From Candidatus Dojkabacteria bacterium (GTDB taxonomy: Bacteria; Patescibacteriota; Dojkabacteria; B142; OLB20), in the NCBI GenBank assembly GCA_035444565.1, contig DAOMOX010000001.1, positions 59,987 to 123,986 of the forward strand: a stretch of 64,000 nt of DNA. The letters are read 5' to 3'. The position numbers were made by a program, and so were the translations under genes. The notes beneath the pieces were generated by a model that saw nothing but the letters and a program-made list of their open reading frames with translations, did no database searches and was not told the DNA's origin. Positions within the stretch are counted from its first letter, which is position 1. Every line of letters begins with the position of its first letter. Positions 29,233 to 58,895 of the stretch are shown here, one piece after another.

Positions 29233-29702
29233 TGTTTGGAGCCAACATATCACAACTGAATAGCAACGTAAACGATGATAATTACCAGGATAAGGTATTC
29301 TCATCAATCAAGCCCTCATTTCTTATTAGAGGTAAAATCTCTATACCACTTACTACTTACGATACTGGAAACTATGCTCAGATTGTTTATACACACAATT
29401 ACGGATATATACCTAACGTGATGGTATTCACTCATACCATGTCAGATAAGTATATCAACATACCTTCAACATGGGGAGAATATTATAATGATCCAGAAGG
29501 GTTAGTAATTGTATCTACTGAAGAGAGTTTCAATTGTTTTGCAGATTCTGTAGCGGTATACATAGAGGCTAGAGTTCATAGATTAGGTTTATATAGAGAG
29601 TTCAATTGGGACACTATGGTGTGGGACGAAACACCAGTAGATGAATACATAATCTATGATTATATGTTTGAGTTAATACTTTCAATGGAGGAGGTCAGTT
29701 AG
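29214..29702 (+). CDS. hypothetical protein
   Basis: 162-aa ORF, the last gene of the plus-strand block. Confidence 0.45.
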   Translation: MEKNSIMFGANISQLNSNVNDDNYQDKVFSSIKPSFLIRGKISIPLTTYDTGNYAQIVYTHNYGYIPNVMVFTHTMSDKYINIPSTWGEYYNDPEGLVIVSTEESFNCFADSVAVYIEARVHRLGLYREFNWDTMVWDETPVDEYIIYDYMFELILSMEEVS

Positions 29703-29719
29703 GTTTAGCAACGAGTCCA

Positions 29720-29741
29720 ATAAGGGTACCCTTATTTTTTA
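29720..29741 (+). terminator. Rho-independent terminator (ATAAGGG-ta-CCCTTAT followed by a T6 run)
   Basis: Perfect 7-bp stem, 2-nt loop and T-tract, 18 nt after the stop of the last plus-strand gene. It is embedded in the 'aggtttagcaacgagtccaa' boundary element. Confidence 0.7.
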
Positions 29742-29814
29742 CCCTCTGAACGCATTGTGGGGAGTTTATTTAGCCCCTAGAAACGGTTCACCTATCCTAG
29801 TTGATACTTCCTAT

Positions 29815-30771
29815 TCATGCCTCACTATCCTGGTCATCAAAAGCAATTTGTTGTGGTTTCTTAAATTCTATATATTCTATTAAGTTGGTGATGACGTAAC
29901 TATTTAGAATTTTATTTTGATAGTCCTTTTTTTGCCTGATTTCTAAATCAACCTTTAAGACATCTTCATGAAATAACCTCAAGCTTCCATCTTTTAACTT
30001 ATTCAATAACTTTGGATCTTCAATGCTTGTTGGATAGAGAATACTTTCTCCCATATAAAAAGAGTATGCTTTGTCCTCACCAGAATACGAGCCTCGTTTT
30101 GGTTTTATATACACATTAGGGAGTTTTTGTACATTCTCTTCAACGTCTTCAAGAAGAATCTCCCCTAGATATGTCTCGAATATCTCTACATCTTGTTGTG
30201 TAACGGATAATCCACTTTCTTCACTTTCTTTATAGATTGACACTCTACTAGCATCGGGAAACCTTTTAAGAGGGATAATAACACTATTAAAATAATTAAC
30301 TTGAACTAGTGGAGACTGTACTAATCGGTGTTCCTCCATAGATACTTCAAATTTTCCTCCATCAGGCATTACATATTCAATTTTTCCGTTTTCTTTTTTG
30401 TGGAAGTTTGTTACCTTCCCTTTTGTGAACCTCAAGATGTTCATAACCCCTACTATGCCTTCTTTGGCATTAAGACCTAGGAAACTAAATAGCAACATTA
30501 AATCCTGTCCATCGCTATCTTTTAGATAGTTTAGAAGACTGCTTACAGGAGAATCTGGTTGAAAGACAAAATCGGTTATCCATGAACCCTCCCTAAATGG
30601 TTTGACCTTAACGTTAATTTTCTTGTCGTAACCCAAAATCTCTGCTGAAATCTTTATTAATTCCCCAAAACTCATTAGAATTGGTGCAATTTCAAATATA
30701 TCCACACCATTGTCGGGATCCACGCCATCTAGCCTGTATACATATTCAATTTTTTTATTATCACTAATCAT
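29815..30771 (-). CDS. hypothetical protein (318 aa)
   Basis: ORF downstream of the giant protein. Confidence 0.45.
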   Translation of the reverse strand: MISDNKKIEYVYRLDGVDPDNGVDIFEIAPILMSFGELIKISAEILGYDKKINVKVKPFREGSWITDFVFQPDSPVSSLLNYLKDSDGQDLMLLFSFLGLNAKEGIVGVMNILRFTKGKVTNFHKKENGKIEYVMPDGGKFEVSMEEHRLVQSPLVQVNYFNSVIIPLKRFPDASRVSIYKESEESGLSVTQQDVEIFETYLGEILLEDVEENVQKLPNVYIKPKRGSYSGEDKAYSFYMGESILYPTSIEDPKLLNKLKDGSLRLFHEDVLKVDLEIRQKKDYQNKILNSYVITNLIEYIEFKKPQQIAFDDQDSEA

Positions 30772-30862
30772 TGTTTGTTATAGGGTTTTAGGACAACTAA
30801 TATTTGTATACTACTATGTTAACTTCTATAAAGTATGAGGTCAATTAAGATTTCGACTAAAA

Positions 30863-33800
30863 CTATTTCTTACTTTTGTTTTTATAACGAGTTTTAGTCC
30901 TATCTTTAGACCACTCTGCAAAATCTCTAGGATAATACTTAGGGTTTTCCAAACCTTCAACATTAGTTAGTATTTTTGACCGTAATTTGGAAGCCTCCTC
31001 TTGATTCTTCTCAATATCAACTTCCCTAAACTCATCTAACAAGTCGTCTACATCGTCCGTAATTGCTTTTATCCTATATATTTCTTTGATTTCTGGTTCT
31101 GTAATGTTTTCGTACTCTCCCCTATGATTTTGAACCGAAGAATATTTTTTATCATTCTCGTCACGAGTGTTATAAAAGTCTGTAATTCTTCTATCAGACG
31201 TCAACCAATAATCTCTCTGGAAAGATGTTAAAGGATTCAAATTTTCGGGTTGACCCATCAGCATTTTACTTGCACGTCCGAATGTTCCTGTAACAAAATA
31301 GTCAATCTTAATTGGGCTGAGGTTCATCATTTCGCCCAATTTTTTAGCCAAAGGTGTTGTACCTTCATTATATTGTTCGGCATTTGGTCTGTTGGATAAT
31401 CCCTGATTAACTAGAGGTCTCACTTCTGGATACTCTTTTACATTAAAAATTACATGTGTTGTAGGTTTAAAGAATTGTGGGACCCATGCTAGTGCTGCCT
31501 TAGTAGGTTCTGCTAAATTAAACTGATCTGGAATCCACGAAGTAACTAAATCTATATACTCATCAGAGTCATACTTTGTGTCAAACATAGCTTCGGAAAC
31601 TATCATGTTTAGGACCGTAGCAGGGATTGTAATTGGAGTAGGAACCCTAAATCGCCACAATCCTTTTCCAGAAGGATTGGGGAAATATATAAAGTTTGCT
31701 AACTCCTCAGGTGCCAAACCTTTATACTGTTCTTTCTGATCGTCTGATGAGTTTCTAAATAAGTAATCTAATGAAGCTAGATAGGCTGCCATTAACACTA
31801 GACCTACAAACATTATGCGTTTTCTCCCACCAGGAGTTTTAGAAACTCTTGCAAGTTGATCCAATACTTGAAGACTTGCATTAAAGAACGGAAGTCCTCG
31901 TATATAGACCGCTCCAGTAATATCAGATGATGTACTTCCCCACACACCTGTGTGATGAAAAGGTGCCGTTACACGACCTGCTTCTTCTAATGCAACTACT
32001 TGAGATTTACCTGCTTTTCTAGCTGCAACATACTCAGCAGCCCTTGTAATAATCTCACTAGCAGAAGCTGGTTTCTGTAGAATATCAAGCGCCTTAGACC
32101 CAATTAAGGTGGCTTTATCTATAAGGCTTTTCTCTGATTTAATTTTCTCAAACAACTGACTTGGTGACATTTTTTGCCAACCCATGAAGGTTTGTCTTTC
32201 ACCCCCCATTACTAGGTATTCCTCATAATACTTTGACTCAATACTATTCTTGTTGATTTTTTGTTTAATATATGTACTAAAAGGACTATAGAGGGGAATG
32301 AATTTATTGTATGAGTTCACAGATGCAGTCACCTGGTCCATGAAAAAGTTGGTTATAGTAAATGGAACAAAAGCTCCAGTAGTACCTAAAGTGAACATCC
32401 TAGAAACTGCGAGATACAATTTACTGAACTTACCAATCGATTTATAATCAAGGATATCATCTATTATTGTTTTAACCTCTTTGTTAACCAAAATAGGTTG
32501 TCTCTTGTAATTCAGTCTTGCCATTATTATGTTTGGATCTTTCTCTTGCGGATATGTTACCTTCTCGGAGCTTTTATCATAGAGAATTTTTAATTCTTGT
32601 TCCTGGAAGATATTCGGAATTGCCGCTGAACTACCAAGACCCCCTATGCGGTTATATACAACCTGTCTCATAGACTTCCTGACTATTTCCGAATGGTTAA
32701 TCATGGAGGAGTAAATAGGATTAATGATAGTTCTCTCTGATCCTGTTCTTCTCATAAGAGATGAAATCTTGGTCTTTTTAACCTTACTAGTTGAGGGGAT
32801 GTCTGTTTCTCCAACCAACTCATCATAAAACTGTCTTTTGAATGATGCGTAACCTTGGGTGTTGTTAAGTTTATCGAAAGTTGCTTTGTCTATTAGTTGG
32901 ACTTCTGGGTTGTGTAATAATTCTAAATCAGCCTTAACTAGTGAATCAAACATTTTCTCCTCATATTTATATGCTTCAGAGTTCTGTTTATAGGCATCGT
33001 CTACAACCTGTCGTGAGAAACCATCATTATCAAGTACAGACTTAAACTCTTCATATTCTTTTTCTAGTTTTTGTAATAACCTATTGGTCTCTCTTTTAAA
33101 GCGCTCAAGGTTCATGGCGGTATACTCGGGCTTACCATTTTTGATGGTACTAGGGATTATTTCAATCCCATAATCTTCCTCTAACATGGACTTTAAATCC
33201 CTGTTAAATCTAGATAACTTATTAGGCTCGGTTATTTTATTTAGTGCCTTAACAATCACCTCTAGTTGACCTTTTCTGTTCCCTAATAGATCTAACTCTT
33301 TGTACAGAAAGTGCTGTCTTCTAGCTACTAAATAATATCCAAAACTATCAGCTCTGTTATTCTTTTCTAATCTGTCTATTAAAGTCTTCCAATTATATTC
33401 ATATTTCTTTTGAAAACCCGATTCTAAGTCTGTAAATGCCCAATACCCACGTTTAGTAGAGATATTATTTCCAACTATTCCATTTACTGCCGAATATGCC
33501 CTTGCCCATAAAGATGGATCAATCGACTTATTATCAATCCCCGCTTTCTTGGCTATAACCTCTAATGGATACACCTTATCTGCTAATTGTTGCCTCAACC
33601 TTTCTTGTGAGGTGAAGAAGCTCTTGCGATCTATTCCAGTATCATCACTAGAAACTCTCGTTCCAATCTTATCTAACGACTCCAGACCTTGATAATCTGC
33701 TACTAATTGGTTTAAATCTTCTAACATTTTCCCAATTGTGGGTTCATAGTATTCTCCCTTTGGTTTAAGAAACTCATTAACTAGTAAAGGATATTCTGTC

Positions 33801-36800
33801 TCTGTAGTCGTAGGAAACTCGACATACTTCTGTAGTAATGTTGCAAACCCTTCTAATTGCTTTAATCTTGGATTATGCCCTGCCTCAGCTCCTGGATAAT
33901 ATTGTAGATAAATCTTTGATAGTTCTTTGTTTAATTCTGGCTTACTTAGATGTACTGTAATTTTGTATTTTGCATCTAAATAATGGGTGAATTCATGAGC
34001 AAACACCGATAAACTATTAATTGAATCGACACGAATGTTTTTTGTAGAAGGATAATACACGCCTAATGCGCCCCTAGGAAGGTATTTCTCACCAACCGTG
34101 AAGTCTTTATCGTATGATTTAAGCAGACTCTGAATCCTCTGGTATATTTTAAACTCCCTAGTCCCTGGCTTGGGCGATTCCCTTAATTCATACTCATCAA
34201 TTGAGGTGGTCCCTTTAGATTTTAGACTAGATATGGTGGCATATCCTTGTCCCCCTCGTACTTTCTCCCCTCTCTGTTTGCCTGTCTCCTTGCCTCTAGT
34301 TCCCTCTGTGAATTCTCTCTCCCTATTCTCAACGACTCCACCAGTTCGGGTGGAAGAGGAGGTTCTTGATTTCTCCTGAATATTTTGTTTAGTAGTTCTT
34401 TCATTGTTGTTATTACTATCTATGCTAATATTTTTTTGCCCTCCCTTTTCATTTTCTCTAGATACTTCCTTCTTCTCTCCTTGCCCTTTTCGATTCCTTC
34501 GTTCATCGCCTTGATTATGTAATTCTCCCTGCCTTCCCTGTCTTCCCAAGAGGGCATCGAGTTGTTTTTTTGTAATTCTTCCTGATTCATATAATTGTTC
34601 TGCATAACTAGCTATCTGATTAATTAAAGTTTTTTTATTGAAGGGGATTTCCTTTATATATTTAACGTCTAGCCTATGAACTCCTTGCATATTCTCCCCA
34701 TTATTTGTAAACATAATGTTTACATTTTCATTTTTCCCGTAATCTTCAAATAATTTTAAGATTACCATCCTTGCTTTTCTATGAGAATTAATGTGATTAC
34801 TTATAGTGACAGTTCTTGGAGTTCCACTTTCATACCTTGCCATAACTCCATCCTTAAATGCCACAAAAGGTTCTCTGTATACATAAAGGATATCGGTCTT
34901 ATAACCTAAGTCTATGGCTTTATCAATATAGCTTTTAGCCCTATTATAATCAGATAGCGTAGAATCATAAGTAATAGTATAATCATTTTTCAATCGTGAT
35001 TTTGAGGTTGTTTTGCCCGATCCTGTACCTCCTGCTAACATAAGTATGCTTTTGTCTTGTTCTTTACTTTTCTCTACTAGTAGTTTATTTAATACTTTAT
35101 CTGCTACTATTCCACTTGCTCTACCATAATCAACTGCATTGGTACGTTTATAACCATCGAATAAAAGTTTTGCACTATCGGAACTAACGTTATTTCCGAA
35201 CCTTTGAATATAGTTATCAACAATCTCGTCGGGGTTTTCCGATAATTGCTCAAAAGACTTTTTTTCGTCTTCGGATCGGAATTTCTCAGGAACTTCTATT
35301 TTCCCAACGTTATCTTCTTTGGGTGTCGACAATAAATTACCATTGGCTTGAACCCTTTTCTCATCTTCGGTTTCGACTGCGATACCCTCTGTTACTTCTC
35401 CTTCTGCCTGGTCCTCTCTTATTTTAGTGGTGATTATAGGGATTTCATTTATCTTTAGTTCTCCATATGCTTTTAAGCGATGATTTCCATCTTCTACCTC
35501 AAAGGTATTCGGTCCTGTAGGTCTAGCAACAATTGGTACTCTTTTACCGCTTTTAATCTCCTCAAGCGCCCTTTGCCCCCTTTCACTATCAAGAGATACA
35601 TTTTCACTTGATTTTATTTGTGTTCTATCTATTGTTCGCCTTTCAACATTATCAGGTCCGCCTATGTTATCAATCGCCTCTTTGAAAGTTCCTTTGCCTA
35701 TAAACTCATCCTCAAAATAACCCGATTCAGTATCATTGTATTCCTGGAATATATCTGATTCAGGGGTAACATCATTTCTCAAACTCTCTGTTACCTCTTG
35801 TACGTCATTCTCGACTGGACCACCCTCTAACTCATTCAATTCATTGATATCATAGTTCCCATCTTCAACACCTTCTGTTATCCCATCCCTAGCTATAAGA
35901 TCATCCATCCCGGCTATTTCATCTGACACACCTTCATCCACACTTATCTCATCCTCTTCAATACCTGCCTGATTTTCGTTCTGTAATAGTTCTATTTCTT
36001 CTCTTATTACTGAAGGTAAACTATCAGGAGGTATATTCTCTTCTTCATCAATGGGGATCTCGATAGGTCCAAATTCGGGTCTTTTTTCTCTCCACTTATA
36101 CCCGGCATTAACAGTTACCTCTGGAATCTTTACCAATCCCCCATACATACCAATCCCTATAATCTCCATCATTAATCTTTGCGCACCTTCCGGTGTAAGA
36201 AGAGAATGATATTGCCTATCTTCAATCTTGGCTTGTACCGGCTCATTGATTTCTTCTTCTAATATCTCCATTAAAAGCCCATCAAATCCACTCTTCTTGA
36301 GATACCTTGAGAATAAATCAATTGATTTGTTATTACTCTTCGAGATTGCCTTACCAATCAACGCCTTCTGCATGAACTTCTCCGGATTCTCTGTAATCAA
36401 TCCCATACGTTTAACAATTCCTTTATACGCTGCACTACCACCCTTTGTTGTTAAATCTCCGACACGTTCTGAAAAATGTTCAGCCCATGAAGATAGAAAT
36501 GCTTTCCTAAAAGCAACGTTAGGATCATCTCCCTTACTTGCTTCCTTCAGTAAAGCCTCTCCATCTTCACTCATCATTATTTCGTATTCGGGTAACGCAT
36601 ACCCGGCTGCCTTCTCTGATAGTGCCGGGAAATTGATTCCTGTTTGAACTGCTGATTCTGCTAACTCGCCTGTCAATTTCTGCATAAATGGTCCTGCGAT
36701 TCTCTTGGGTAGTATCTTTGTAACAGCCGGACCTATTTTAGTGGCACCTAAGGCACCTTTGGCTGCACCCTTTGTAATCAGAAATTCATATCCGTACCTA

Positions 36801-37696
36801 GCCATATCCGGCATCATCTCTCCGACTGCATAAGGAATACCCCTATCTATTCTAGAATCTATCATCTTGGCTGACATTAGATTCAATGCGGCAATTTCAG
36901 TCTTACTTAATACATCACCTCCATGATATTTCTCGGTTATTGCTTTGATATCTACCAATTCCCTTTCACCCTCTTCTAACTTCTCTAGTGCTTCTTTCGT
37001 GAGCTTATCCCTATCACTTTTCAATGTGTTATATCCAAAGGGTAGAAAACGGAGATCAAGGATTGATTCTTTTAATCCATCAAAGAATCCGGATTTAACA
37101 TCAGACCTATTAATAAACTTGTTGTACATTTCCGCCTCTTCACTAATCAACTGAAGATACTCATGATCTTCTTTCCTCTTCTTTCGTTTCTCTGGATCAA
37201 TTGTAGGAATAAAACCAGCCCATCTTTCCTCAAAGGTCATATTCTGGAACTCTTGATTAAGGAAATTCATCCTCTCTAGTACATAAGGACTCTTTGCTTC
37301 ATACACTTCCGGAGCATTATGATCTATCACCTTCTTCTGGTCGTTATACATCTTCTTTGCATACTTGACTCTATCCTTTGCTCCTTTAATGCTTAGAGGA
37401 TCCTTTAGAAGGACCTTCTTTGGATCCTTCTTGATCGCACTCTTTAGTTTGGAGAAAAAGCCCTCTTCAGGCTCCTCTTTTTTAGTTGAAGTTGATATGG
37501 GAGTTGTATCGGGAGCGGTCCATTTCTTAGGAGTTGTTGGCTCTACTGCCTTGTTATAAGTGCCATCTAAAATAGCATCAAATTGTTTCCTATCGAAACT
37601 GACTTGACGCATTTCTTCATCATCATCATTGTCATTTGTTTGAACTCCGGTAGATAATATCCTATCAAAGTCCTCCCTTGAGAATATCTTAGACAT
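30863..37696 (-). CDS. Giant polyvalent virion protein (2277 aa) with ParB-like nuclease, zeta-toxin-like P-loop kinase, low-complexity R/G/E linker, HExxH metallopeptidase and a long C-terminal region with a TM segment
   Basis: ParB nuclease (ParBc) 'KRVPIVARPTGPNTFEVEDGNHRLKA'. P-loop 'ILMLAGGTGSGKTTSKSRL' with a zeta/PNK-like downstream region. Linker 'RQGRQGELHNQGDERRNRKGQGEKK...'. Peptidase 'SVFAHEFTHYLD'. TM 'IMFVGLVLMAAYLASLDYL'. Confidence 0.7.
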   Translation of the reverse strand: MSKIFSREDFDRILSTGVQTNDNDDDEEMRQVSFDRKQFDAILDGTYNKAVEPTTPKKWTAPDTTPISTSTKKEEPEEGFFSKLKSAIKKDPKKVLLKDPLSIKGAKDRVKYAKKMYNDQKKVIDHNAPEVYEAKSPYVLERMNFLNQEFQNMTFEERWAGFIPTIDPEKRKKRKEDHEYLQLISEEAEMYNKFINRSDVKSGFFDGLKESILDLRFLPFGYNTLKSDRDKLTKEALEKLEEGERELVDIKAITEKYHGGDVLSKTEIAALNLMSAKMIDSRIDRGIPYAVGEMMPDMARYGYEFLITKGAAKGALGATKIGPAVTKILPKRIAGPFMQKLTGELAESAVQTGINFPALSEKAAGYALPEYEIMMSEDGEALLKEASKGDDPNVAFRKAFLSSWAEHFSERVGDLTTKGGSAAYKGIVKRMGLITENPEKFMQKALIGKAISKSNNKSIDLFSRYLKKSGFDGLLMEILEEEINEPVQAKIEDRQYHSLLTPEGAQRLMMEIIGIGMYGGLVKIPEVTVNAGYKWREKRPEFGPIEIPIDEEENIPPDSLPSVIREEIELLQNENQAGIEEDEISVDEGVSDEIAGMDDLIARDGITEGVEDGNYDINELNELEGGPVENDVQEVTESLRNDVTPESDIFQEYNDTESGYFEDEFIGKGTFKEAIDNIGGPDNVERRTIDRTQIKSSENVSLDSERGQRALEEIKSGKRVPIVARPTGPNTFEVEDGNHRLKAYGELKINEIPIITTKIREDQAEGEVTEGIAVETEDEKRVQANGNLLSTPKEDNVGKIEVPEKFRSEDEKKSFEQLSENPDEIVDNYIQRFGNNVSSDSAKLLFDGYKRTNAVDYGRASGIVADKVLNKLLVEKSKEQDKSILMLAGGTGSGKTTSKSRLKNDYTITYDSTLSDYNRAKSYIDKAIDLGYKTDILYVYREPFVAFKDGVMARYESGTPRTVTISNHINSHRKARMVILKLFEDYGKNENVNIMFTNNGENMQGVHRLDVKYIKEIPFNKKTLINQIASYAEQLYESGRITKKQLDALLGRQGRQGELHNQGDERRNRKGQGEKKEVSRENEKGGQKNISIDSNNNNERTTKQNIQEKSRTSSSTRTGGVVENREREFTEGTRGKETGKQRGEKVRGGQGYATISSLKSKGTTSIDEYELRESPKPGTREFKIYQRIQSLLKSYDKDFTVGEKYLPRGALGVYYPSTKNIRVDSINSLSVFAHEFTHYLDAKYKITVHLSKPELNKELSKIYLQYYPGAEAGHNPRLKQLEGFATLLQKYVEFPTTTETEYPLLVNEFLKPKGEYYEPTIGKMLEDLNQLVADYQGLESLDKIGTRVSSDDTGIDRKSFFTSQERLRQQLADKVYPLEVIAKKAGIDNKSIDPSLWARAYSAVNGIVGNNISTKRGYWAFTDLESGFQKKYEYNWKTLIDRLEKNNRADSFGYYLVARRQHFLYKELDLLGNRKGQLEVIVKALNKITEPNKLSRFNRDLKSMLEEDYGIEIIPSTIKNGKPEYTAMNLERFKRETNRLLQKLEKEYEEFKSVLDNDGFSRQVVDDAYKQNSEAYKYEEKMFDSLVKADLELLHNPEVQLIDKATFDKLNNTQGYASFKRQFYDELVGETDIPSTSKVKKTKISSLMRRTGSERTIINPIYSSMINHSEIVRKSMRQVVYNRIGGLGSSAAIPNIFQEQELKILYDKSSEKVTYPQEKDPNIIMARLNYKRQPILVNKEVKTIIDDILDYKSIGKFSKLYLAVSRMFTLGTTGAFVPFTITNFFMDQVTASVNSYNKFIPLYSPFSTYIKQKINKNSIESKYYEEYLVMGGERQTFMGWQKMSPSQLFEKIKSEKSLIDKATLIGSKALDILQKPASASEIITRAAEYVAARKAGKSQVVALEEAGRVTAPFHHTGVWGSTSSDITGAVYIRGLPFFNASLQVLDQLARVSKTPGGRKRIMFVGLVLMAAYLASLDYLFRNSSDDQKEQYKGLAPEELANFIYFPNPSGKGLWRFRVPTPITIPATVLNMIVSEAMFDTKYDSDEYIDLVTSWIPDQFNLAEPTKAALAWVPQFFKPTTHVIFNVKEYPEVRPLVNQGLSNRPNAEQYNEGTTPLAKKLGEMMNLSPIKIDYFVTGTFGRASKMLMGQPENLNPLTSFQRDYWLTSDRRITDFYNTRDENDKKYSSVQNHRGEYENITEPEIKEIYRIKAITDDVDDLLDEFREVDIEKNQEEASKLRSKILTNVEGLENPKYYPRDFAEWSKDRTKTRYKNKSKK

Positions 37697-37719
37697 AGTT
37701 GCAAATATAGATAAATCAA

Positions 37720-50094: not shown

Positions 50095-50129
50095 GCACTA
50101 TTTTATATTTTATTTTTTAACTTGCCCCC

Positions 50130-50312
50130 ATGAGTCAAATCTCAAAACTCAAAGAGATAATGAGTTGTAAAGAGGATTTAGAGACTTTTGAAGAGAAATA
50201 TATTGAGAGTGTTTTCAGGTTTTATAGGAGATACGGATATCTTACCAGGAGCCAATGGGACTGGATAGATATCTACTATAACAAACTTTATCAATTATAC
50301 AGCTATGAGTAA
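50130..50312 (+). CDS. hypothetical small protein
   Basis: 60 aa. Confidence 0.3.
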   Translation: MSQISKLKEIMSCKEDLETFEEKYIESVFRFYRRYGYLTRSQWDWIDIYYNKLYQLYSYE

Positions 50313-50345
50313 TGGTTCTAGAGCTACATTAGATTATGTCCTATT

Positions 50346-50531
50346 TTGGACTATTGGAATGATTATTTTAGTTATTACCTTTCTTTAATGCCCTACATTA
50401 AAAGCACTAATTTTGGATTTAATGGTGATGATGATTATCCGAAGTTAACGAAAGCAGGAACTGTTGTATCCGTATTGATGGTTTTACTTACAGTTAGTTT
50501 TCTACTATGGATAACAATAGCATACAGCTAA
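50346..50531 (+). CDS. hypothetical small membrane protein
   Basis: 61 aa with a C-terminal TM helix. Confidence 0.3.
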   Translation: MDYWNDYFSYYLSLMPYIKSTNFGFNGDDDYPKLTKAGTVVSVLMVLLTVSFLLWITIAYS

Positions 50532-50692
50532 CAGAAGAGGACAAGCAGAGTATAGTAGAATATCTACAGGCGTTACAAAGCATAAAGGACCGCACTACAG
50601 AAGGTTAATAATTGAATTGTGGTGGACAATGCGGGGCATAGGGGTATGTTTAAGTTGTCCATCACAACCCATTTACATTTTAACCAATCCAA

Positions 50693-51187
50693 ATGAGAGA
50701 GATAAGATTCAGGGCTTGGCAAAGCGAAGATAAACAAATGATTTACTCGCCTTTAATCACATCTAATGATGGTGCCGATAAAGCCTTCACGTCTTTTTGG
50801 GCTTTTATTGAAGATAACACTATATACGCGGGAGATGTTCAGATAATGCAATACATAGGACTAAAAGACAAGAACGGTAAAGAGATTTACGAGGGGGATG
50901 TGATAAATTATTTAGATAATTCTCATGATTATGGTGAATTTGGTTTTGGAATTAGAAAGGGGGTATGTGAATTTTCAAACCATACGGGAAGTTTCTTTTT
51001 TAGGGGTGATGATGGAGATACAAGGGATTATATGAACCTTGTTAATATGCAAGAAAAATGGAGTAAAGAAAGTTATCAAACAGTAAGTTCGCCATTCAGA
51101 GATGGTAAATTAGTAAAAAGTTACACTGAAATTGAAATCATCGGAAACATCTACGAAAACCCTAATTTATTATCACAAGACAAATGA
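50693..51187 (+). CDS. YopX-family phage protein
   Basis: N-terminus 'MREIRFRAWQ..' and 'IGLKDKNGKEIYEGDVI', as in the YopX domain. Confidence 0.65.
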   Translation: MREIRFRAWQSEDKQMIYSPLITSNDGADKAFTSFWAFIEDNTIYAGDVQIMQYIGLKDKNGKEIYEGDVINYLDNSHDYGEFGFGIRKGVCEFSNHTGSFFFRGDDGDTRDYMNLVNMQEKWSKESYQTVSSPFRDGKLVKSYTEIEIIGNIYENPNLLSQDK

Positions 51188-51414
51188 CAGACAAAGAGAT
51201 TGAGGAAAAAAGAGAGGAGTTTATTACAACATTTCCGAGTCTTTACGAGGGTCTTGGAACTGGAAGTTATTTGGAGATTCACGATAAGGTATGGCAATGG
51301 ATAGAGGAACTGATAAGGCATTATCATACACAAGGAAAGATAGAGGGATATAAAGAATGTCTTGAAGAGCAAGACGAACATGGCAAATATAATTTATTAA
51401 AAGATAAAAGATGA
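51184..51414 (+). CDS. small acidic protein, paralog of 53066-53359 (WxWIEELI motif)
   Basis: 'MTDKEIEEKREEF...VWQWIEELIRHY' versus 'MTDKEKAEKKNEY...LLIWEWIEELIKEV'. Confidence 0.45.
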   Translation: MTDKEIEEKREEFITTFPSLYEGLGTGSYLEIHDKVWQWIEELIRHYHTQGKIEGYKECLEEQDEHGKYNLLKDKR

Positions 51415-51493
51415 AAATTCACGAGGTTAATAAGTTCATAAGGGACACTAAAGTCACATTGATAAGCGAATATTATGACGGACAGGTTGCCCG

Positions 51494-51742
51494 ATGAAGA
51501 GTACTTCAAAAATGAACTTAATACAGAAAGCTCAAAAGGTTAAAACAAGCACTTATTCATATAACAAGAAGTATACCTTTGAGGAGGTACAACTTGCCAA
51601 TGCTTGGGTTCATAGAGCAGTTACTTCTCACCAATTAGCTACAGTACTGAACATGAGTGGCGGAAATATTTATGTATTTATTTGTGGAGCTTTAAAGTAT
51701 GGTGCAAGCAAGGGTTGGTTAGAAACAAATATAATTTATTAA
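51494..51742 (+). CDS. hypothetical protein
   Basis: 82 aa. Confidence 0.35.
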   Translation: MKSTSKMNLIQKAQKVKTSTYSYNKKYTFEEVQLANAWVHRAVTSHQLATVLNMSGGNIYVFICGALKYGASKGWLETNIIY

Positions 51743-51750
51743 ATAATGAC

Positions 51751-52089
51751 ATGAACTATTATCCCAAAACTATAAAAAAAGACCCACTCCATAATTGGAA
51801 AGAGGTTGAGAAATATCGAGACAATAATAAAGGGAGATTACCAACAGAGCCAACTATTAAAGAAAGGGATATTAGGCTTTTAATAGATGAACTGGGCTTT
51901 GAATGGCACTCAGTTAGAACTTGGATTTTTGAAAGGGCTTATGGAGTTGAAAAGATTAGATTCACAATAAGCCAGAGTAGAACGCAAAAGGACCATTGGA
52001 TGTTCACAATTAAAAGCAAGGGTTATATACAGCAAACAAGAACTAATAAGTTAGAAGAGATTTGGAACGAGATACACGCTCATTTTTAA
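51751..52089 (+). CDS. hypothetical protein
   Basis: The track ORF starts at 51682 and overlaps the upstream gene. The internal ATG at 51751 is preferred. Confidence 0.35.
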   Translation: MNYYPKTIKKDPLHNWKEVEKYRDNNKGRLPTEPTIKERDIRLLIDELGFEWHSVRTWIFERAYGVEKIRFTISQSRTQKDHWMFTIKSKGYIQQTRTNKLEEIWNEIHAHF

Positions 52090-52218
52090 ATTATTATTTC
52101 TTATTATGAAAATAAATACAGAAATAGCAAAAGGAACTAAAAAAGTACCAACACTTGATATTACCAAGAAGGTAAATCAAGATCCTATCCAAAAGAGAGA
52201 AGATAACTAACTTATTAA

Positions 52219-52653
52219 ATGATTGATATGTTAAAAAGAAAATTTAGAATAGATGATTATGGTGATTTACTTGCAGAGGGAGTGGGGAAAAAGCTCATTT
52301 CTATTACTTATTTCGGTAGCTATCAGGGCGATTGGATTGCCGCACTTGATAATGGAAAGAACATAGAGGTTTGGAAGGGTTTTTATGGTAGTTGTTCGGT
52401 GTGTGATTCGTTACAGTCGATGTATCGTATGGATAAAAATGCAGACGACTATTTAACTAGGGGAGATATTGACGCATTGACAGATATGCTCAAAGAAGAG
52501 GGTAACCCATTCATTAAAATACCTAAGAATATATTTAATGACATTTCTGTAAAAGATTTTGAGGCACTACTTCCTCTGAATACCAGGGCTGACATATACA
52601 ACTTCGATGCAGGGGAATTATTAACAGATATTAGACAAGCTCTTCAAAACTAA
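52219..52653 (+). CDS. hypothetical protein (144 aa)
   Basis: ORF containing a CxxC pair 'CSVCDS'. Confidence 0.4.
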   Translation: MIDMLKRKFRIDDYGDLLAEGVGKKLISITYFGSYQGDWIAALDNGKNIEVWKGFYGSCSVCDSLQSMYRMDKNADDYLTRGDIDALTDMLKEEGNPFIKIPKNIFNDISVKDFEALLPLNTRADIYNFDAGELLTDIRQALQN

Positions 52654-52807
52654 ATAGGAACCAAACACAGGTGGTTTGCTTGACCGAAAAGAGGGCGTAG
52701 AGGGAATGTGCAAACGTAGCACTAGGTCGGTAAGTTACGCATTAGCCATGAAAGAAGTCGACTCAGACATGGCAGACCGCAGACCACCTCTGTTTAGTTT
52801 TTATTAA

Positions 52808-53047
52808 ATGCTTGATATGAGCTATATAGATTTTATTTATCAAGAGCCACCAGATGAAGGGGACTTCTATGCAGACTTAGCAGAGCTAGATAGGCAATGG
52901 ATTTGGAAAACAAAGAGTGGTGAGGAAATAGAATATGACAAACTAGAAACAAGTCATATTCAAAACATCATTAAAAAACTTAAAGTGGAAAGGTACAACA
53001 TGCCAAATTTATTCAGAGAATTAAGAAGAAGAGGGTTTACTAACTAA
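52808..53047 (+). CDS. hypothetical protein
   Basis: 79 aa. Confidence 0.35.
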   Translation: MLDMSYIDFIYQEPPDEGDFYADLAELDRQWIWKTKSGEEIEYDKLETSHIQNIIKKLKVERYNMPNLFRELRRRGFTN

Positions 53048-53065
53048 CTTATTAAATGAAACCAA

Positions 53066-53359
53066 ATGACAGACAAAGAAAAAGCCGAAAAGAAGAATGA
53101 GTATTACGAGAAATTCGTGGGCTATGATGCATATGACGAGTTAACAGATGCAGAACAGGAGAAGCTATTGATATGGGAATGGATAGAGGAACTGATTAAA
53201 GAAGTTGAGAACAAAATAGAATCAGATATCCAAGACATTAGGATAGATTATTATCAAAAGTATTTAGGACACAATGTTTTGAAAGAGTTATCTGTACACG
53301 AGATGGAAAAAGTAATGATATGGAACTGGTTTGAAGAAAAGTTACGGAACTTTTCGTAA
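53066..53359 (+). CDS. small acidic protein with two WxWIEELI-like repeats (paralog of 51184-51414)
   Basis: 'LLIWEWIEELIKEVENK' and 'VMIWNWFEEKLRNF'. Confidence 0.45.
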   Translation: MTDKEKAEKKNEYYEKFVGYDAYDELTDAEQEKLLIWEWIEELIKEVENKIESDIQDIRIDYYQKYLGHNVLKELSVHEMEKVMIWNWFEEKLRNFS

Positions 53360-53437
53360 CCATCTTTATGTTAAAGAGAAAAATGTGAAGTCCTGATTTA
53401 AGCTCATTATTCCAGTTCTAAACACGTCCCATAAGGC

Positions 53438-53515
53438 ACCCCAGTGTTTCTGAGCTTGCGAAGAAATACACTGGGTAAGGTCTGCCGTAGCTTTAGCGTA
53501 GGCATGACCACCCCA
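53438..53515 (+). repeat. 78-bp direct repeat, copy 1 (75/78 identical to 58818-58895); contains a hairpin CCAGTGT-N22-ACACTGG
   Basis: 'accccagtgtttctgagcttgcgaagaaatacactgggtaaggtctgccgtagctttagcgtaggcatgaccacccca'. Confidence 0.85.
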
Positions 53516-53561
53516 TTTCATCAATTAACTTAAATCCAATCAAACTCTCAAAAAAACATAT

Positions 53562-54554
53562 CTAGTTTAAGATAGTTGTTAAATCAGACTCGTCTAGCAT
53601 GATTGCAAGATCTTTTAGTAATTCATGTCCCTCCGGCATATGAACTCCAGGTAAATTAGCAAGGACATGATCAGTAACACCATCACTATATACGTCAGGA
53701 TTTGCATATCTATATTGCATTATTGGATCGAGTGCTAATTGAGATAAAATATTTCCCGGAATCATAGCCATACTCATTTCGGCAAATATTACCCCTCCTC
53801 TCAACGTTTTACCATCATACTTCCCGGCAGTTCCTTTATGTTCTCGTTTGACTCCTTCCGCCAAATCAATACCTGAATCACCATACCGTCTTAAGGGATC
53901 GTTGAATAAAAGTAATTCTGTTTCTCTTCCAACGTAACCAAAAATACGCCTCCTAACATGACCTTCTTTAACAGGATGGCCAAATGCATGCTCATACAAA
54001 CCCCAGTATTGATCAAAGCTCAATTGAAGTTGTTTTCTAAACAGAATATTTAATGTGTTTTGTTCTAAATATTGAGTAATAAGTGAGGAAATATGTTTAA
54101 TTTCTGGCCTTATTAAGATTGCTGAGACACCATTTGCTACCAGTGCATTTACCTGAGGTATTTTTTCTGCAAACAACCGCTCCAAGTTGATACCGCCAAG
54201 ATACCGAAATGTGCCATAGTCTTGACTATTTAATATTGGAAGGACTTCCGGGAAATCGCAATGTGCAGATACAATCATTGCTTTTTCTATGTATCCTTGT
54301 GCTGCATTTGAGTCTTTTGGAGTTAACCCAGTCTCTTGAGTCAAATACAAAAGTTGTTGGGGTAGAATGTGTGCTAATTCTTTCATAGCCTGCCCAGCAA
54401 GAAAAGTGAGATGTTCATTTCTTTGTTGATAGAAAGGAGGCATTTCTTCGGGTTCAGAAGAAAAAGATCTTTCAAAAAAATCTAGATATTGAGTGATCGA
54501 AATTTGGTTAACATTTGGGGCAGTTCTATTTTCACCAGAGAACTTGAGATTCAT
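53562..54554 (-). CDS. hypothetical protein (330 aa), last gene of a 4-gene operon
   Basis: Long ORF separated by 6 nt from the CYTH gene. No motif recognised; 'RRYGDSGIDLAEG' is faintly nucleotidyltransferase-like. Confidence 0.5.
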   Translation of the reverse strand: MNLKFSGENRTAPNVNQISITQYLDFFERSFSSEPEEMPPFYQQRNEHLTFLAGQAMKELAHILPQQLLYLTQETGLTPKDSNAAQGYIEKAMIVSAHCDFPEVLPILNSQDYGTFRYLGGINLERLFAEKIPQVNALVANGVSAILIRPEIKHISSLITQYLEQNTLNILFRKQLQLSFDQYWGLYEHAFGHPVKEGHVRRRIFGYVGRETELLLFNDPLRRYGDSGIDLAEGVKREHKGTAGKYDGKTLRGGVIFAEMSMAMIPGNILSQLALDPIMQYRYANPDVYSDGVTDHVLANLPGVHMPEGHELLKDLAIMLDESDLTTILN

Positions 54555-54560
54555 GTTTCA

Positions 54561-55208
54561 TTATTTAAACAAAAGCTCGGAATAAAAATTAATATTATAT
54601 AGATCAAAAAAACTCTGTCCCGAAAGAATTGATACTTGATTTCCCCCTAGACCAAGTTTTTTAATCCAATTATGAATGATTTCAGAATTACTTGCTTCAA
54701 TCTCCAAATAAGTAGGGATTCCTGGCCACGTATCAATATCAAAATGAGCAGAAAGTGATTCGTGAACAATTTGGTATGAAATTCTTTTTTTCTGTTGATG
54801 TGCAGTAACAATTAAACCAGCATCGGTAATAGTTTGGCCAATTTTTCCCCATTCATTCTTTGTTAAATTTGTATTTAGCTCGACTTCTTTTTTTACGTCT
54901 ATATTGTGAGACTTTGAAAATTTAAGTGTAAACTCATAATGCTCACCTTGTTTTCGTGCTCGTAAATGATAATTTTGATCACGCAATGATTTACCATGCC
55001 AAGTTAATTCTTCAGCAATTTTAATAGTATCTACTAGTTTTGCCGGTAGCTTTGTATATTCAATTTCAAGACTCTTACTTATATCGAAAGTCCAAATTTC
55101 AGTAAGAGCATCTAAAATTTTTTCAGCATGATTCTTTTCAAGTTCATTTATTAAATGTTCCTTGTTTACTGCTAATACTTTTAATTCTAATTCTTCTACT
55201 TTTTTCAT
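54561..55208 (-). CDS. CYTH-domain protein (class IV adenylyl cyclase / triphosphate tunnel metalloenzyme family)
   Basis: N-terminal 'ELELKVLAV' (EIE[RK]KFL-like) and C-terminal 'YLEIEA'. Length 215 aa fits a CYTH domain. Confidence 0.55.
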   Translation of the reverse strand: MKKVEELELKVLAVNKEHLINELEKNHAEKILDALTEIWTFDISKSLEIEYTKLPAKLVDTIKIAEELTWHGKSLRDQNYHLRARKQGEHYEFTLKFSKSHNIDVKKEVELNTNLTKNEWGKIGQTITDAGLIVTAHQQKKRISYQIVHESLSAHFDIDTWPGIPTYLEIEASNSEIIHNWIKKLGLGGNQVSILSGQSFFDLYNINFYSELLFK

Positions 55209-55209
55209 T

Positions 55210-56109
55210 TTAAGTTAATAATATATCAATGGATTCATCTTCATTAAGCAAATACTCCGTTGCTCTTTCGGACAGCCTAGCTATTTTATCGGGGCTACTG
55301 TTTATCTTGTATGGGACATTTGTTCTATAAGTCCGATACAAGATCGTGGCTGCAATATATTGGTTTATTAAATTCTTATTAAATGTTAACCCAAAGCTAG
55401 TTTCAAAACCAGAAAAGAATGCATCGAAAATCTCTCTACGAGCATCAGAGTTTAGAAGTAAATGACCTAATGCATAACCAATATCGAATTCTTTTATACC
55501 TACGCAAACTGTTTCTAAATCACAAATCTTAATTTCTCCTTCCGTATCTATCAATATATTTTTTGGGGATAGGCTCCCCATTATTAACCCTTTATTACCT
55601 TTATTTAAAAGTTGTAGATGATTAAATCCGGGGATTCTTGAAAATCTAAAATTTAATATTTGTTCAAAAAATGATTTATCGTCTTCCCTAAACTCATCAA
55701 CAACTGGCAATTTAGATTGCACACAAGCAATTAGCTCACCAAACTTAAACGCGAAGCCAGGTGTGATTCCAGACGAGAAAATCATATTTTGTAGTGTATC
55801 TCCACCTGATGGTAATAAATCCGATAGAACAATTATCCCATTTTCAATATCTTCACCTAATAAGAGAGGGAAATTTTTAGGGGCAATTCCTGAAAATATT
55901 TTTATCCCTTCTGCTTCATATTCAATCTCATGAGGTTGTGTAGTTACATTTTCCAATTGTGAGGCACTTTTACCTCTGATTTTTACTATATACGTTCCAT
56001 CTTCACCAAAGATTCTATAGACCTGATGTACTAAGCCACCCGACAATTCAGCAACATTCACTGGTTTATAATTTAGATATTTTTCAAGTACAAGATTTGA
56101 TTCCGTCAA
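55210..56109 (-). CDS. APH/ChoK-family small-molecule kinase (phosphotransferase enzyme family)
   Basis: Nucleotide-binding 'LSGGLVHQVYRI'. Catalytic region 'PKNILIDTEGEIKICDLE'. 299 aa. Confidence 0.6.
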   Translation of the reverse strand: MTESNLVLEKYLNYKPVNVAELSGGLVHQVYRIFGEDGTYIVKIRGKSASQLENVTTQPHEIEYEAEGIKIFSGIAPKNFPLLLGEDIENGIIVLSDLLPSGGDTLQNMIFSSGITPGFAFKFGELIACVQSKLPVVDEFREDDKSFFEQILNFRFSRIPGFNHLQLLNKGNKGLIMGSLSPKNILIDTEGEIKICDLETVCVGIKEFDIGYALGHLLLNSDARREIFDAFFSGFETSFGLTFNKNLINQYIAATILYRTYRTNVPYKINSSPDKIARLSERATEYLLNEDESIDILLT

Positions 56110-57044
56110 AATACTCTAGGTAAAAAGAATTCGGGAGGTTCAAAAAGCTGAGTTTCAGAAAAATCATCTCTTTGTATACTGCTAACAATTTGTTCATACG
56201 ACCAATCTGGACAAACATTATGTGGTATTTGTACAGTATCTCTACCTAAGTGAGCTAATTGCCTCACCCCAACAATATAATATGGTGGTCTATAAGTATC
56301 TTCACTTAAACCACCATCTATCCCCATATTAATCATAAGATCATCAGTCTCAATTCTTGATCTCTGAATCACACCTTCAATTTCTTCTAATAAAAATTCT
56401 CTAGTATTTCTTAAGGGTAATTTATCTGTGAGATATAAAATATGTTTAAGTTTTGCTTTCAGTACATATTGGTAGTCATCCCTTATTACTCGCCATGCTT
56501 CAAGTTTGCTCGAAAGATGGTCATCAATCATTGATCTTGTGACAGTACCTGTATTTAGTTTGCCTTCGAGGATATTTACATACCAATTTGATTCACTCAA
56601 TCGCGGTACAATCATTCCAATTACTGCTCTTAATCCGTTAATGTTTTCTACATCAAATTGCAATTTTAATAGTTCTGAAAATTGTGGAAATAGATAATCA
56701 AAGCCGGCAAACAATGATTGCCTATCCCAATAAGGAATATTTTCGGTATTTGACCCACCCCATTCTGCGATTCCTGTGACAACATGAACTTTTGTATGCC
56801 TATCCATCCTTCTCAAATGGTTTGGCTTGGACAAATCAATTCCAGCTTGAAGTTGAGTATTAGGCTTAACTTTTTCCTTCTCTCTAGCATACATGTCGTT
56901 TACGGCTTCAAAAAACATTACTGGATGTGATACCACTTCTTGAAGGGGATAATTTAATACTGCAGTATGGGACGCTGAACTGTTTGGAAATAGTTCTTGG
57001 TCAAAGATGTGATTTTTAACGTCTGTGGAGAATTCACTACCCAT
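56106..57044 (-). CDS. hypothetical protein (312 aa), first gene of the 4-gene operon
   Basis: ORF overlapping the kinase start by 4 nt. Confidence 0.5.
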   Translation of the reverse strand: MGSEFSTDVKNHIFDQELFPNSSASHTAVLNYPLQEVVSHPVMFFEAVNDMYAREKEKVKPNTQLQAGIDLSKPNHLRRMDRHTKVHVVTGIAEWGGSNTENIPYWDRQSLFAGFDYLFPQFSELLKLQFDVENINGLRAVIGMIVPRLSESNWYVNILEGKLNTGTVTRSMIDDHLSSKLEAWRVIRDDYQYVLKAKLKHILYLTDKLPLRNTREFLLEEIEGVIQRSRIETDDLMINMGIDGGLSEDTYRPPYYIVGVRQLAHLGRDTVQIPHNVCPDWSYEQIVSSIQRDDFSETQLFEPPEFFLPRVF

Positions 57045-57183
57045 ACCTTAATATATTATATTAATAAGTAATGTGGGCAGTTAAAATAAATGTGTTATCC
57101 ATTATACCATTTAAGTAAAGTGTGATTAATAGGAGGTCGTCTTGTAGTACATCCTATACGAGTCCTACAAGTGACCCCCCATC

Positions 57184-57918
57184 TTAGGAATTATTTATTG
57201 AGAATTTATCCAATTCTTTTTTCACTTGTACTAATAATTGTTTATCAACTTTAAAATCCTTTGAGTAAATTTCGTTATGTAATGAGCTCAAATCAAGTAT
57301 GATATCTTTAGTATGTATATCATCAGGATTGAAATCATTGACCATAACAACTAATGGTTTAACGAAAAGTTTGTCATGCGTATCTTCGGGTAATTTATCC
57401 AGCAAAAACTTTCTTAATCTCATTGCATTGGATAATGCCTGTGTATTTGGAGATCTTAGTAATTGTTTACGCTTACCACTTATACCAAATTTCCGTTTCT
57501 CAGTTCGATACCATTTATCGCCATATACTTCAATCCTACCTGTATAATTCTTAGTTTCTATTACAAAAATCCCTTTCCTAGATAAGACAATATGGTCAAT
57601 ATCCATCTTACTATTAGGTAGCATTATATTTTGGTAACTATAACTATGCTCTACTTCTAACAGTTTATTAGCAACAACTATTTCTCCTTGGTCACCTCTT
57701 TCGTAACTATCATAGCTATCCCAGCTCGAAAAAAACATATCAATTATCTTATCCATTAATATGAATAGTCCACAAAAGCCTAACAAATAGAATAACAAAG
57801 TATTTTGCACAATGAATTTTTTATCAAGTAGAATGAGGAATATCAACACTGTAATAAATCCGCTAAGTAGCATTATTATAAGTTTTCTGGATTTTTGTTT
57901 TTTAGAATATTTACTCAT
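57184..57918 (-). CDS. Membrane-anchored NERD (nuclease-related domain) protein
   Basis: Two N-terminal TM helices, then 'QGEIVVANKL...MDIDHIVLSRKGIFVIETKNYTGRI', the NERD signature. Confidence 0.7.
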   Translation of the reverse strand: MSKYSKKQKSRKLIIMLLSGFITVLIFLILLDKKFIVQNTLLFYLLGFCGLFILMDKIIDMFFSSWDSYDSYERGDQGEIVVANKLLEVEHSYSYQNIMLPNSKMDIDHIVLSRKGIFVIETKNYTGRIEVYGDKWYRTEKRKFGISGKRKQLLRSPNTQALSNAMRLRKFLLDKLPEDTHDKLFVKPLVVMVNDFNPDDIHTKDIILDLSSLHNEIYSKDFKVDKQLLVQVKKELDKFSINNS

Positions 57919-58056
57919 ATATGAATCAGTATAAACACTTTGTTCATGAACATGAAGACCTTGCTAGATACCATCATAAAATGAACAGTCAGTTAATGTA
58001 AAATTGACTAATTAAAGCAATAATATTAAAATCCTAATATATGAATCCTTCTCCAA

Positions 58057-58365
58057 ATGACTGATAAAGTAGTTAAACTCTCAATAGATAATAGACTAAT
58101 AATATTGGTTGTTTTATTAGTTGCAGGAATCTTTTCTCTATTTGTAATGTACGAAAAGATTAATGACCAACAAAAGCAGTCCAATTTCGAAGAATGCCAA
58201 GCCTCAGCATACAAGAGGTTCGGGGAACGACTTCAGTCACTTTGTGGAAAAAAAGATCTCTCAGAATGTCAAGCCTCAGAAATATCTACAGACTTAGCAG
58301 ATCACTACACTAAAATGTATGATGATGAGAATGATGATTGTTTGAAAATTATGCTTTATGATTAA
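58057..58365 (+). CDS. small secreted or membrane-anchored Cys-containing protein (paralog of 58372-58674)
   Basis: N-terminal TM or signal, then 'FEECQASAY...LCGKKDLSECQASE'. Confidence 0.45.
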   Translation: MTDKVVKLSIDNRLIILVVLLVAGIFSLFVMYEKINDQQKQSNFEECQASAYKRFGERLQSLCGKKDLSECQASEISTDLADHYTKMYDDENDDCLKIMLYD

Positions 58366-58371
58366 TTTGCT

Positions 58372-58674
58372 ATGAAAAGGTCCTATGCTTTAATCGCACT
58401 CATATTTACAAGTTTAATTATAATCATGCTTGGTATCCTAGTTGGATACCCAATTTATAAGGACCAATCAAGAAAAGAGCTTGTTAGTAATTGTAACGAG
58501 TTTCGAGATTTCTCACTTAGAGAGAAGCTTAGCGAAGTGTGCAAAGACGAGGGTTTTAGAAACACTGACGAATGTAAACTTCCAGATGATACGTTTAAAG
58601 CTATAAATAATTACGCGGACATACAAGAGGAAGCATGCATCAAACAAGACTGGCCTTCCAAATATGATGAATAG
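58372..58674 (+). CDS. small secreted or membrane-anchored Cys-containing protein (paralog of 58057-58365)
   Basis: N-terminal TM, then 'SNCNEFRDFSLREKLSEVCKDEGFRNTDECKLPDD'. Confidence 0.45.
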   Translation: MKRSYALIALIFTSLIIIMLGILVGYPIYKDQSRKELVSNCNEFRDFSLREKLSEVCKDEGFRNTDECKLPDDTFKAINNYADIQEEACIKQDWPSKYDE

Positions 58675-58794
58675 TATTAGTTTATAGTATATAGTTTCCA
58701 ATACCCATGTAATGATATTGAGAACTACTAAATTGTCGACTCTGAAAGCAGTGAATTTATATTATTAATGTTGAAGTTAAAATCAATTTTAAGG

Positions 58795-58895
58795 TTTAGC
58801 AACGAGTCCAACAAGTGACCCCAGTGTTTCTGAGCTTGCGAAGAAATACACTGGGTAAGGTCTGCCGTAGCTTCAGCGAAGGCATGGCCACCCCA
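58795..58895 (+). repeat. Boundary element: 'ggtttagcaacgagtccaacaag' (22/23 identical to 29701-29723) fused to copy 2 of the 78-bp repeat (58818-58895); 'cgagtccaacaagtgacccca' resembles the tRNA-His 3' end
   Basis: Direct comparison with 29701-29723, 53438-53515, 57155-57176 and the tRNA 3' sequence 'cgagtcccatttgccacccca' (16/21). Confidence 0.75.

Follow-up and report, generated by a model that had tools for sequence, protein, structure and literature searches.

A family of short, related sequence blocks was analyzed in a 64,000-nucleotide stretch of a Candidatus Dojkabacteria genome (contig DAOMOX010000001.1, positions 59,987 to 123,986 of the forward strand; hereafter the window, whose numbering is used throughout). 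An earlier note had described these blocks as boundary elements at the module junctions of a phage and an adjoining island, and had offered attR-like remnants, recombination sites for modular cassette exchange, or shared terminator modules as explanations. All four listed blocks are present in the window sequence, and we propose that most of them are joints left by recombination at an integration hot spot, namely the 3' (CCA) end of a tRNA-His gene in the Dojkabacteria chromosome, a reading to which we assign a probability of about 0.78. Three different things had been merged in the description: the attachment (att) sites of a prophage, a 95-nt repeat around an island, and the box of a dispersed element (DE). 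A serine-integrase att system combined with tandem island accretion at a tRNA hot spot is of a known kind, found here in an unusual host.

The intact tRNA-His (GTG) gene occupies 13189..13265 on the plus strand (ARAGORN, Rfam), and the gene for a large serine recombinase (LSR) lies against it on the minus strand (13200..14714, of which 13266-14714 is encoded by the phage). A tyrosine-type integrase might have been assumed beside a tRNA gene; the Pfam domains identify a serine recombinase instead, with Resolvase (PF00239), Recombinase (PF07508) and Zn_ribbon_recom (PF13408) domains and the N-terminal motif TRVSTPDQ. An integrase 98% identical to this protein is encoded by a related phage, IMGVR_UViG_3300048838_000562 (L003), which carries an uninterrupted attP junction (...ccagttctaaacacgtcccataaggCACCCCAtgtaggacgctgg...) joining what is window position 53443 to 13266; the attP sequence (...cataaggCACCCCAtgtaggacg...) is intact in this contig. 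Because of this junction, and because L003 is collinear with the window on either side of it, the prophage is delimited as 13266..53443 (40,178 bp, with no strand assigned), with the attL core at 13259-13265 and the attR core at 53437-53443. Among its genes are those for RecT, for a replication initiator and for the structural proteins major head and baseplate Gp10_C.

The B arm of attB, which is also the left half of attL, is the 3' end of tRNA-His itself (13243-13265, plus strand). The P arm and core of attR, aacacgtcccataaggCACCCCA, occupy 53421..53443 on the plus strand and are identical in the attP junction of L003; the block noted earlier at 53425 is real and is part of this arm. Only the 7-nt core CACCCCA is common to all four sites (attL, attR, attP and attB), and comparison with attP and with the empty sites described below shows that the junctions are exact. 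The prophage is inserted by its own LSR at the CCA end of tRNA-His, and the tRNA is left whole; recombination activity of the LSR at these att sites is predicted. The length of the core fits the 5-8 bp given for serine-integrase cores (PMC8092301).

The integrase open reading frame (ORF) itself crosses the att core, both in the window (13200-13330 and 53340-53443) and in a sister species, L026 (10319-10470 and 16880-17039). In the excised form the window LSR has 508 aa and the tail ..TWGALWDVFRTGIMSLNQDFTFFSLT*, whereas the integrated ORF reads through the core into the antisense strand of the tRNA and encodes 504 aa with the tail ..TWGGKWDSNPRPPLPQRGALTN*. The L026 LSR is 24% identical to that of the window and ends, in its attP form, in ..PIWGRLWKEIRTGLMTHYMNLA*, and the motif WGxLWxxxRTGxM is common to both. 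Either this tail is functional and is lost at integration, or its conservation mirrors the DNA site.

The chromosomal side of the joints is given by relatives without the prophage, whose alignment had been suggested in the earlier note and which provided attB sites empty of the phage (L009) or fully empty (L035 and L027). The tRNA core ...GCCACCCCA is followed immediately, in both L035 and L027, by AGTGTGAC(T/C)CTTAGC, which is the sequence found in the window at 58896, the beginning of flank R (agtgtgactcttagcgg...; 58896..58984, plus strand). Flank R, the B' side of the ancestral attB, is a spacer reaching the stop codon of a 190-aa gene. Because tRNA-His directly adjoins R in both relatives, the whole of 13266-58895 (45.6 kb) is an insert. 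The neighboring GIY-YIG gene of L035 is 94% identical to that of the window, L027 is a sister species, and contigs that matched are from activated sludge. A homologue of the right-flank protein is assigned by its source to Candidatus Dojkabacteria. The GIY-YIG ORF (12948-13211) overlaps the 5' part of tRNA-His by 23 nt and is called alike in all relatives (L004-L007 and L026-L035).

Beyond the prophage, the insert contains a second element. A repeat finder detected a direct repeat (D4) of 95 nt, 53421-53515 and 58801-58895, whose copies are 91% identical and 5,380 nt apart, with 96% identity across 78 nt from CCCCA onward. The blocks at 53421 and 58801 make up its opening 23 nt, and the end of the island, previously placed near 58830, is at 58895. 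Each repeat contains a 72-nt segment, S (copy 1, 53444..53515; copy 2, 58824..58895; both on the plus strand), which ends in a second core, CCACCCCA (53508-53515 and 58888-58895), the same octamer that ends tRNA-His; the same C-rich core thus stands both before and at the end of each copy. The 5' end of S copy 1 acted as the B' arm at phage integration. The outermost joint between insert and chromosome is 58895|58896, and the same S|R joint is found in L011 and in a metagenome-assembled genome (MAG), JAJTYI010000004.1.

Between the S copies lies island E2 (53516..58823, 5,308 bp, no strand assigned), which is present neither in the attP-form phage L003 nor in the empty sites. At its left end, a unit of 39 nt (53516-53554) precedes 21 nt (53555-53575) that comparison with L037 shows to be a relic of the left arm of an island of type A. 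The cargo comprises a minus-strand operon of four genes (330, 215, 299 and 312 aa, the third kinase-like), a gene for a NERD-domain protein and two for small membrane proteins; no recombinase was recognizable in E2 by Pfam, PADLOC or NCBIfam. Within the cargo region (53562-57918), the NERD protein weakly resembles defence kinases (the N-terminal regions of MkoA, PglW and MAD6), the 299-aa protein has a weak APH/kinase-like match, and the other proteins match no family; E2 is possibly a defence island.

In the MAG, S directly follows the same tRNA-His, with no phage in the site. The array there has three copies of S and two islands: island A, which has its own LSR (24% identical to the phage LSR), and island B, which has none. 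Island B is 97.7% identical to E2, and the chromosomal flanks of the two genomes are 96.1% identical; because the divergence of E2 from the MAG is close to that of the flank, it is old and inherited, and the phage is the later, lineage-specific arrival. The array is tandem in both genomes, phage plus E2 in the window and island A plus island B in the MAG, with S at every boundary. The left end of island A in the MAG is a recombinant of its own arm and the 21-nt relic arm seen at the left of E2 (AACATATCTA|CTTTAAG), and a 147-nt duplication in the MAG is best read as the product of homologous exchange in this relic arm; such exchange may also be behind the S duplication around E2.

Several other origins of S were rejected. 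S is absent from the empty sites and is therefore not ancestral host sequence, nor a small RNA gene 3' of the tRNA. A decayed copy of tRNA-His was also considered, but 470 of 3000 shuffled sequences scored as well, and the resemblance is not significant. Models in which islands carry S only at the left or only at the right end do not fit on their own, as both boundaries are exact joints. S measures exactly 24 codons, and its minus strand is open in both copies (WGGHA[FY]A[EK]ATADLTQCISSQAQKHWG); the minus-strand frame of copy 1 is that of the phage integrase tail, possibly by chance (1/3). Minus-strand ORFs across S found no support as genes.

The same tRNA end has been used repeatedly. At least five other element ends adjoin it in the relatives, and in most of these an LSR gene is present whose ORF extends into the tRNA. 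L026 and L027 together provide a second complete case at this core, with attL, attR and an empty site; the L026 element is an independent LSR island. The arms around the core were tabulated, XA and XB denoting the right-end arms of MAG islands A and B. The tRNA-His end, as a left arm, is followed by R, by S or by six other right arms; the phage P arm by its own P' arm (attP) or by S (attR); the S 3' end by the 39-nt unit, by R or by TCTAGAAAATC; XA by S or TCTAGAAAATC; and XB by S or the left end of island A. Five different left arms were found before S. Because the breakpoints are constant while the partners are shuffled, site-specific recombination at the core is indicated. A metagenome scan recovered only the same arrangement again. 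Another occurrence of island A, in L037, has the 13-nt repeat ACCCCATCTAGAA on both sides.

In a distant relative, L024 (flank protein 56% identical), tRNA-His is separated from the conserved flank gene by a 7.3-kb island (10552-17936). This island has genes of restriction-modification type (HNH, two methyltransferases, Mrr) and is bounded by a 10-nt repeat, CCACCCCATT; an internal copy of the dispersed element ends ..TGACCCCAT and possibly marks two fused islands.

Exchange at the blocks, as the earlier note had suggested, is thus supported in the form of partner swapping at the core, between whole integrated elements of the tRNA-His locus, and not within the phage. When the two related phages were compared, the box at 29701 was found to be kept at the same place (L036), and homology broke instead at a gene border, 29809. 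None of the blocks is present in the more distant phages L012-L017. No match, close or distant, was found in the phage collection search, and searches of IMG/VR with the 318-aa and 478-aa phage proteins returned no relatives.

The att sites also have the symmetry expected of serine-integrase substrates, with imperfect inverted-repeat half-sites in both attP and attB. The attP dyad is CGTCC-N18-GGACG (12 of 26 positions matching), and the attB dyad, read across tRNA-His and R, is GAGTC-N20-GACTC (14/26), its left GAGTC being the T-loop of the tRNA; both are centered on gcCA|CCcc, as is the dyad of the L027 attB (13/26). In register with the core, the left arms of the inserted elements resemble the tRNA arm: 10 of 15 positions for the P arm (p=4e-4), 9/15 for the E2 arm (p=0.002), 8/15 for both XA and the L024 arm and 7/15 for the L026 arm, against a background of 3.5 +/- 1.6. 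This is why the blocks looked like the 3' end of tRNA-His to the earlier reader. The likeness noted for the copy near 58808 is real and in register with the crossover core, with 15 rather than 16 of 21 positions identical between the tRNA 3' end and the copy at 58803. The pattern CGAGTCC-N8-ACCCC occurs three times in the window (13245, in tRNA-His; 57159; 58803) against 0.09 expected, two of the three sites being copies of a single element.

That element is the DE, whose origin is probably separate from the att sites. The 24-mer (aggttt...aaYaag) listed in the earlier note occurs at 29701-29724 and at 58792-58815, the second copy starting at 58792 and not at 58795; the copies agree at 23 of 24 positions, and 0.00 such pairs were expected from 100 shuffles. 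A BLAST search with the right end of E2 found matches at three intergenic places in L027, and a profile built from them (nhmmer) defined an element of ~95 nt with a full copy in the window at 58735..58828 on the plus strand (E=1e-25); its 3' box (58792-58823) holds the 24-mer and cgagtcc..acccca and forms the right-end arm of E2 beside the core. Besides the three copies in L027, there is one each in L026, L029 and L024. A partial box (29699..29740, box proper 29699-29732, plus strand) directly follows the stop codon of the last gene of the tail-fibre block and has no CCCCA core. An inner copy, tacgagtcctacaagtgacccccca (57132..57181, plus strand), preceded by aggaggtcgt and set within a cttgtag/ctacaag hairpin, lies between the NERD gene and the four-gene operon, is conserved in the MAG and has no S after it; it is a degenerate DE box and possibly an old joint. 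The proposal of attR-like remnants is largely right: the attP junction and the empty sites make 53421-53443 a true attR P arm, and 58801-58895 qualifies as well, with its inner joint at 58823|58824. The 24-mer is a DE box that would not be an att site by origin, and the sequence CGAGTCC-N8-ACCCCA of this box resembles the tRNA arm.

To the right of tRNA-His in L027 (10635-20264), minus-strand gene groups are separated by DE copies of the same orientation. The groups comprise a 421-aa gene; genes for a Glu dehydrogenase, a PALP-domain protein, a cupin and a thiamine pyrophosphate (TPP) enzyme; a 218-aa gene; and ABC exporters. One of the DE copies is followed by an S-like start (atgtttgttaga). 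The region looks like an array of old accreted units.

On this basis, the following course of events is proposed. The LSR would cut at or near the A|C of gcCA|CCcc, the center of the attP and attB dyads. The left arms would be tRNA-like because the same kind of protein reads both, and therefore the right joint of an inserted element would still be attB-like; further elements could then land at such joints and give rise to tandem arrays. S would probably have been duplicated when an element integrated beside a resident copy and the relic arms then underwent unequal or homologous exchange, a course of steps readable in the MAG. A broader model is put forward only tentatively, and we consider it doubtful: an open-ended locus of LSR accretion, in which the tRNA-like arm plus ACCCCA would keep the right joint usable while phages, islands and cassettes reshuffle, and in which the tail swap of the integrase might act as a directionality switch.

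A number of points weigh against the hot-spot reading. Canonical LSRs recombine only attP with attB and need a short core. Long direct repeats of 78-147 nt are not explained by such enzymes, and the duplication of S therefore needs another step; likewise, attR-like joints are unexpected substrates, and because canonical LSRs do not use them, accretion by the LSR is something we can only infer. The tRNA|S site actually used by the phage shows no clear dyad at the core, the S 3' and XB arms are not significantly tRNA-like, and the ends of E2 form, by inspection, no inverted repeat of the LSR type. S is weakly similar to R, collinearly from the core, at only p~0.01, and may have diverged from a copy of the B' flank. 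Of the contigs with empty sites, L035 is short and of low coverage; L027 and L029 are long, but belong to a sister species. Finally, the L003 contig has a 91% internal duplication and may be partly chimeric. At 47.9 kb, this IMG/VR contig is ~7.7 kb longer than the prophage, and near its end an earlier stretch recurs at 91% identity only (L036 10614-12103 against L003 4194-5683); instead of a clean circular genome, it may represent a concatemer or two phage variants joined in a chimera.

The first alternative takes S and the 95-nt repeat as the long att site of a tyrosine-integrase tRNA island beside which the prophage later landed. Such islands typically have direct repeats like those of 78-95 nt that surround the 5.3-kb island beside the tRNA gene here, tRNA sites in PMC8092301 belonging to tyrosine integrases with cores of 25-76 bp, and in L026 a gene with a faint Phage_integrase match adjoins the LSR. 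Yet neither E2 nor MAG islands A and B have a detectable tyrosine recombinase, and the tRNA is not rebuilt by the repeat, which is located outside it, only the 7-nt core overlapping. Every recombinase beside this tRNA in the relatives is an LSR, and the boundaries of S coincide with the LSR core. We therefore regard a tyrosine island as improbable.

The second alternative, in which the blocks and S would be kept for expression, as a small RNA, a terminator module or another RNA or transcription signal, is judged quite unlikely. All copies are indeed intergenic and stand at the ends of plus-strand gene blocks, and the shared terminators suggested by the earlier note have some footing in the 29701 copy, which overlaps a weak A+U-rich hairpin followed by T6 (aataagggtacccttatttttt, 29719-29740). 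However, the other copies have no terminator, so that a G+C-rich hairpin with a U-tract in each copy is not found; the terminator scan returned 0 sites and did not flag 29719-29740, and neither terminator nor promoter scans rose above the shuffle background. In L027 the DE copies share a single orientation, lie 42-150 nt upstream of minus-strand gene starts and have promoter-like hexamers on the other strand; the DE as a promoter was nevertheless unsupported by the scan statistics. S can be drawn with two hairpins, but its folding z-scores are weak on both strands (-1.8 and -1.4), and the diverged S' of L018 has lost the second hairpin. The DE has no conserved fold (RNAalifold -1.6 and -3.0 kcal/mol, no covariation), Rfam matched only the tRNA at gathering and permissive thresholds alike, a structured non-coding RNA family is thus not indicated, and S is missing from the empty sites.

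The remaining alternative, in which E2 with S is a non-autonomous satellite moved in trans by the neighboring LSR (excision by S x S or core x core) as part of the phage cycle, is hardly credible either: E2 is bracketed by repeats ending in the core used by the phage LSR, its right arm resembles both the P arm and the tRNA arm, and partners are swapped in several lineages, but its divergence, like that of the chromosome, looks vertical, it adjoins a different LSR element in the MAG, its ends form no dyad, and neither an E2 circle nor an allele with a single S was found in viral and metagenome scans, a 24-mer from S being absent from IMG/VR.

Recombination joints at a tRNA-His hot spot thus remain the preferred explanation, and they can be compared with several known systems. 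Closest are the LSRs of phages such as phiC31, Bxb1, A118, TP901-1 and SPbeta (SprA), which share the Resolvase-Recombinase-Zn-ribbon protein, an attP next to int, a short core, quasi-palindromic attP and attB, and clean insertion that can be checked against empty sites. The present system differs in its target, the CCA end of a tRNA and not an ORF, all serine-integrase sites in PMC8092301 being inside ORFs. It differs further in that the int ORF crosses attP, so that its last ~25 codons change at integration, and in a P arm that is unusually like the B arm.

The array as a whole recalls the islands of staphylococcal cassette chromosomes (SCCmec, with CcrAB), which are inserted by serine recombinases at the 3' end of rlmH (orfX) and form tandem arrays that include the recombinase-less psi-SCC; the elements are separated by repeated att sites, and each insertion regenerates a usable site. 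The present array likewise occupies one fixed site, where a conserved gene ends, and has tandem elements separated by repeated att, a recombinase-less member and an LSR. However, the SCC repeats are of ~15-20 bp as compared with 78-147 nt, no CcrA/CcrB pair is present, the host belongs to another phylum, and one member of the array is a full prophage. Accretion by tyrosine integrases, including cis-mobilizable elements (CIMEs), at tRNA genes or fda shows the same tandem att repeats, integrase-less members and preference for tRNA 3' ends, but the recombinase class differs, and the present repeat neither overlaps nor rebuilds the tRNA. The L027 gene groups, spaced by a ~95-nt element in one orientation beside a fixed insertion point, resemble integron arrays, but in resemblance only: there is no IntI and no attC-like conserved hairpin, and the units are multi-gene.

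Well-delimited prophages are scarce in Dojkabacteria, which belong to the candidate phyla radiation (CPR; Patescibacteria), and exact attP, attB, attL and attR sites and boundaries are now available for a 40-kb temperate phage of an uncultured member. With this system, a further serine integrase is available whose target is the 3' end of a tRNA, and its tRNA-His locus is a landing pad that at least six different elements share among related genomes. As integrase tools, the att pairs are candidates, and the array structure and the tail swap offer leads to the means by which serine recombinases might cope with repeated insertion at a single site.

Other features of the window were noted in passing. 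At the start of the plus-strand tail block, an 815-aa phage protein (17426-19873) has weak intein-splicing (E ~3e-4) and LAGLIDADG (~6e-4) matches and possibly contains an intein; further on, many repeats in a 42-nt phase (D1, D7, D9, D14; 22297-23264) within a 1039-aa tail-block protein suggest that it has a repetitive domain of fibre or adhesin type. The ~800 nt before the GIY-YIG gene (12100-12900) have no long ORF and no Rfam match; a 72-nt direct repeat of 72% identity (12615-12686 and 12804-12875) ending in tttgatataatct is located there, and a G+C-rich palindrome follows at ~12905-12930. A short tandem array of 8-nt units (GATTAAGG-like) occupies 1228-1275, just past the ORF ending at 1233.

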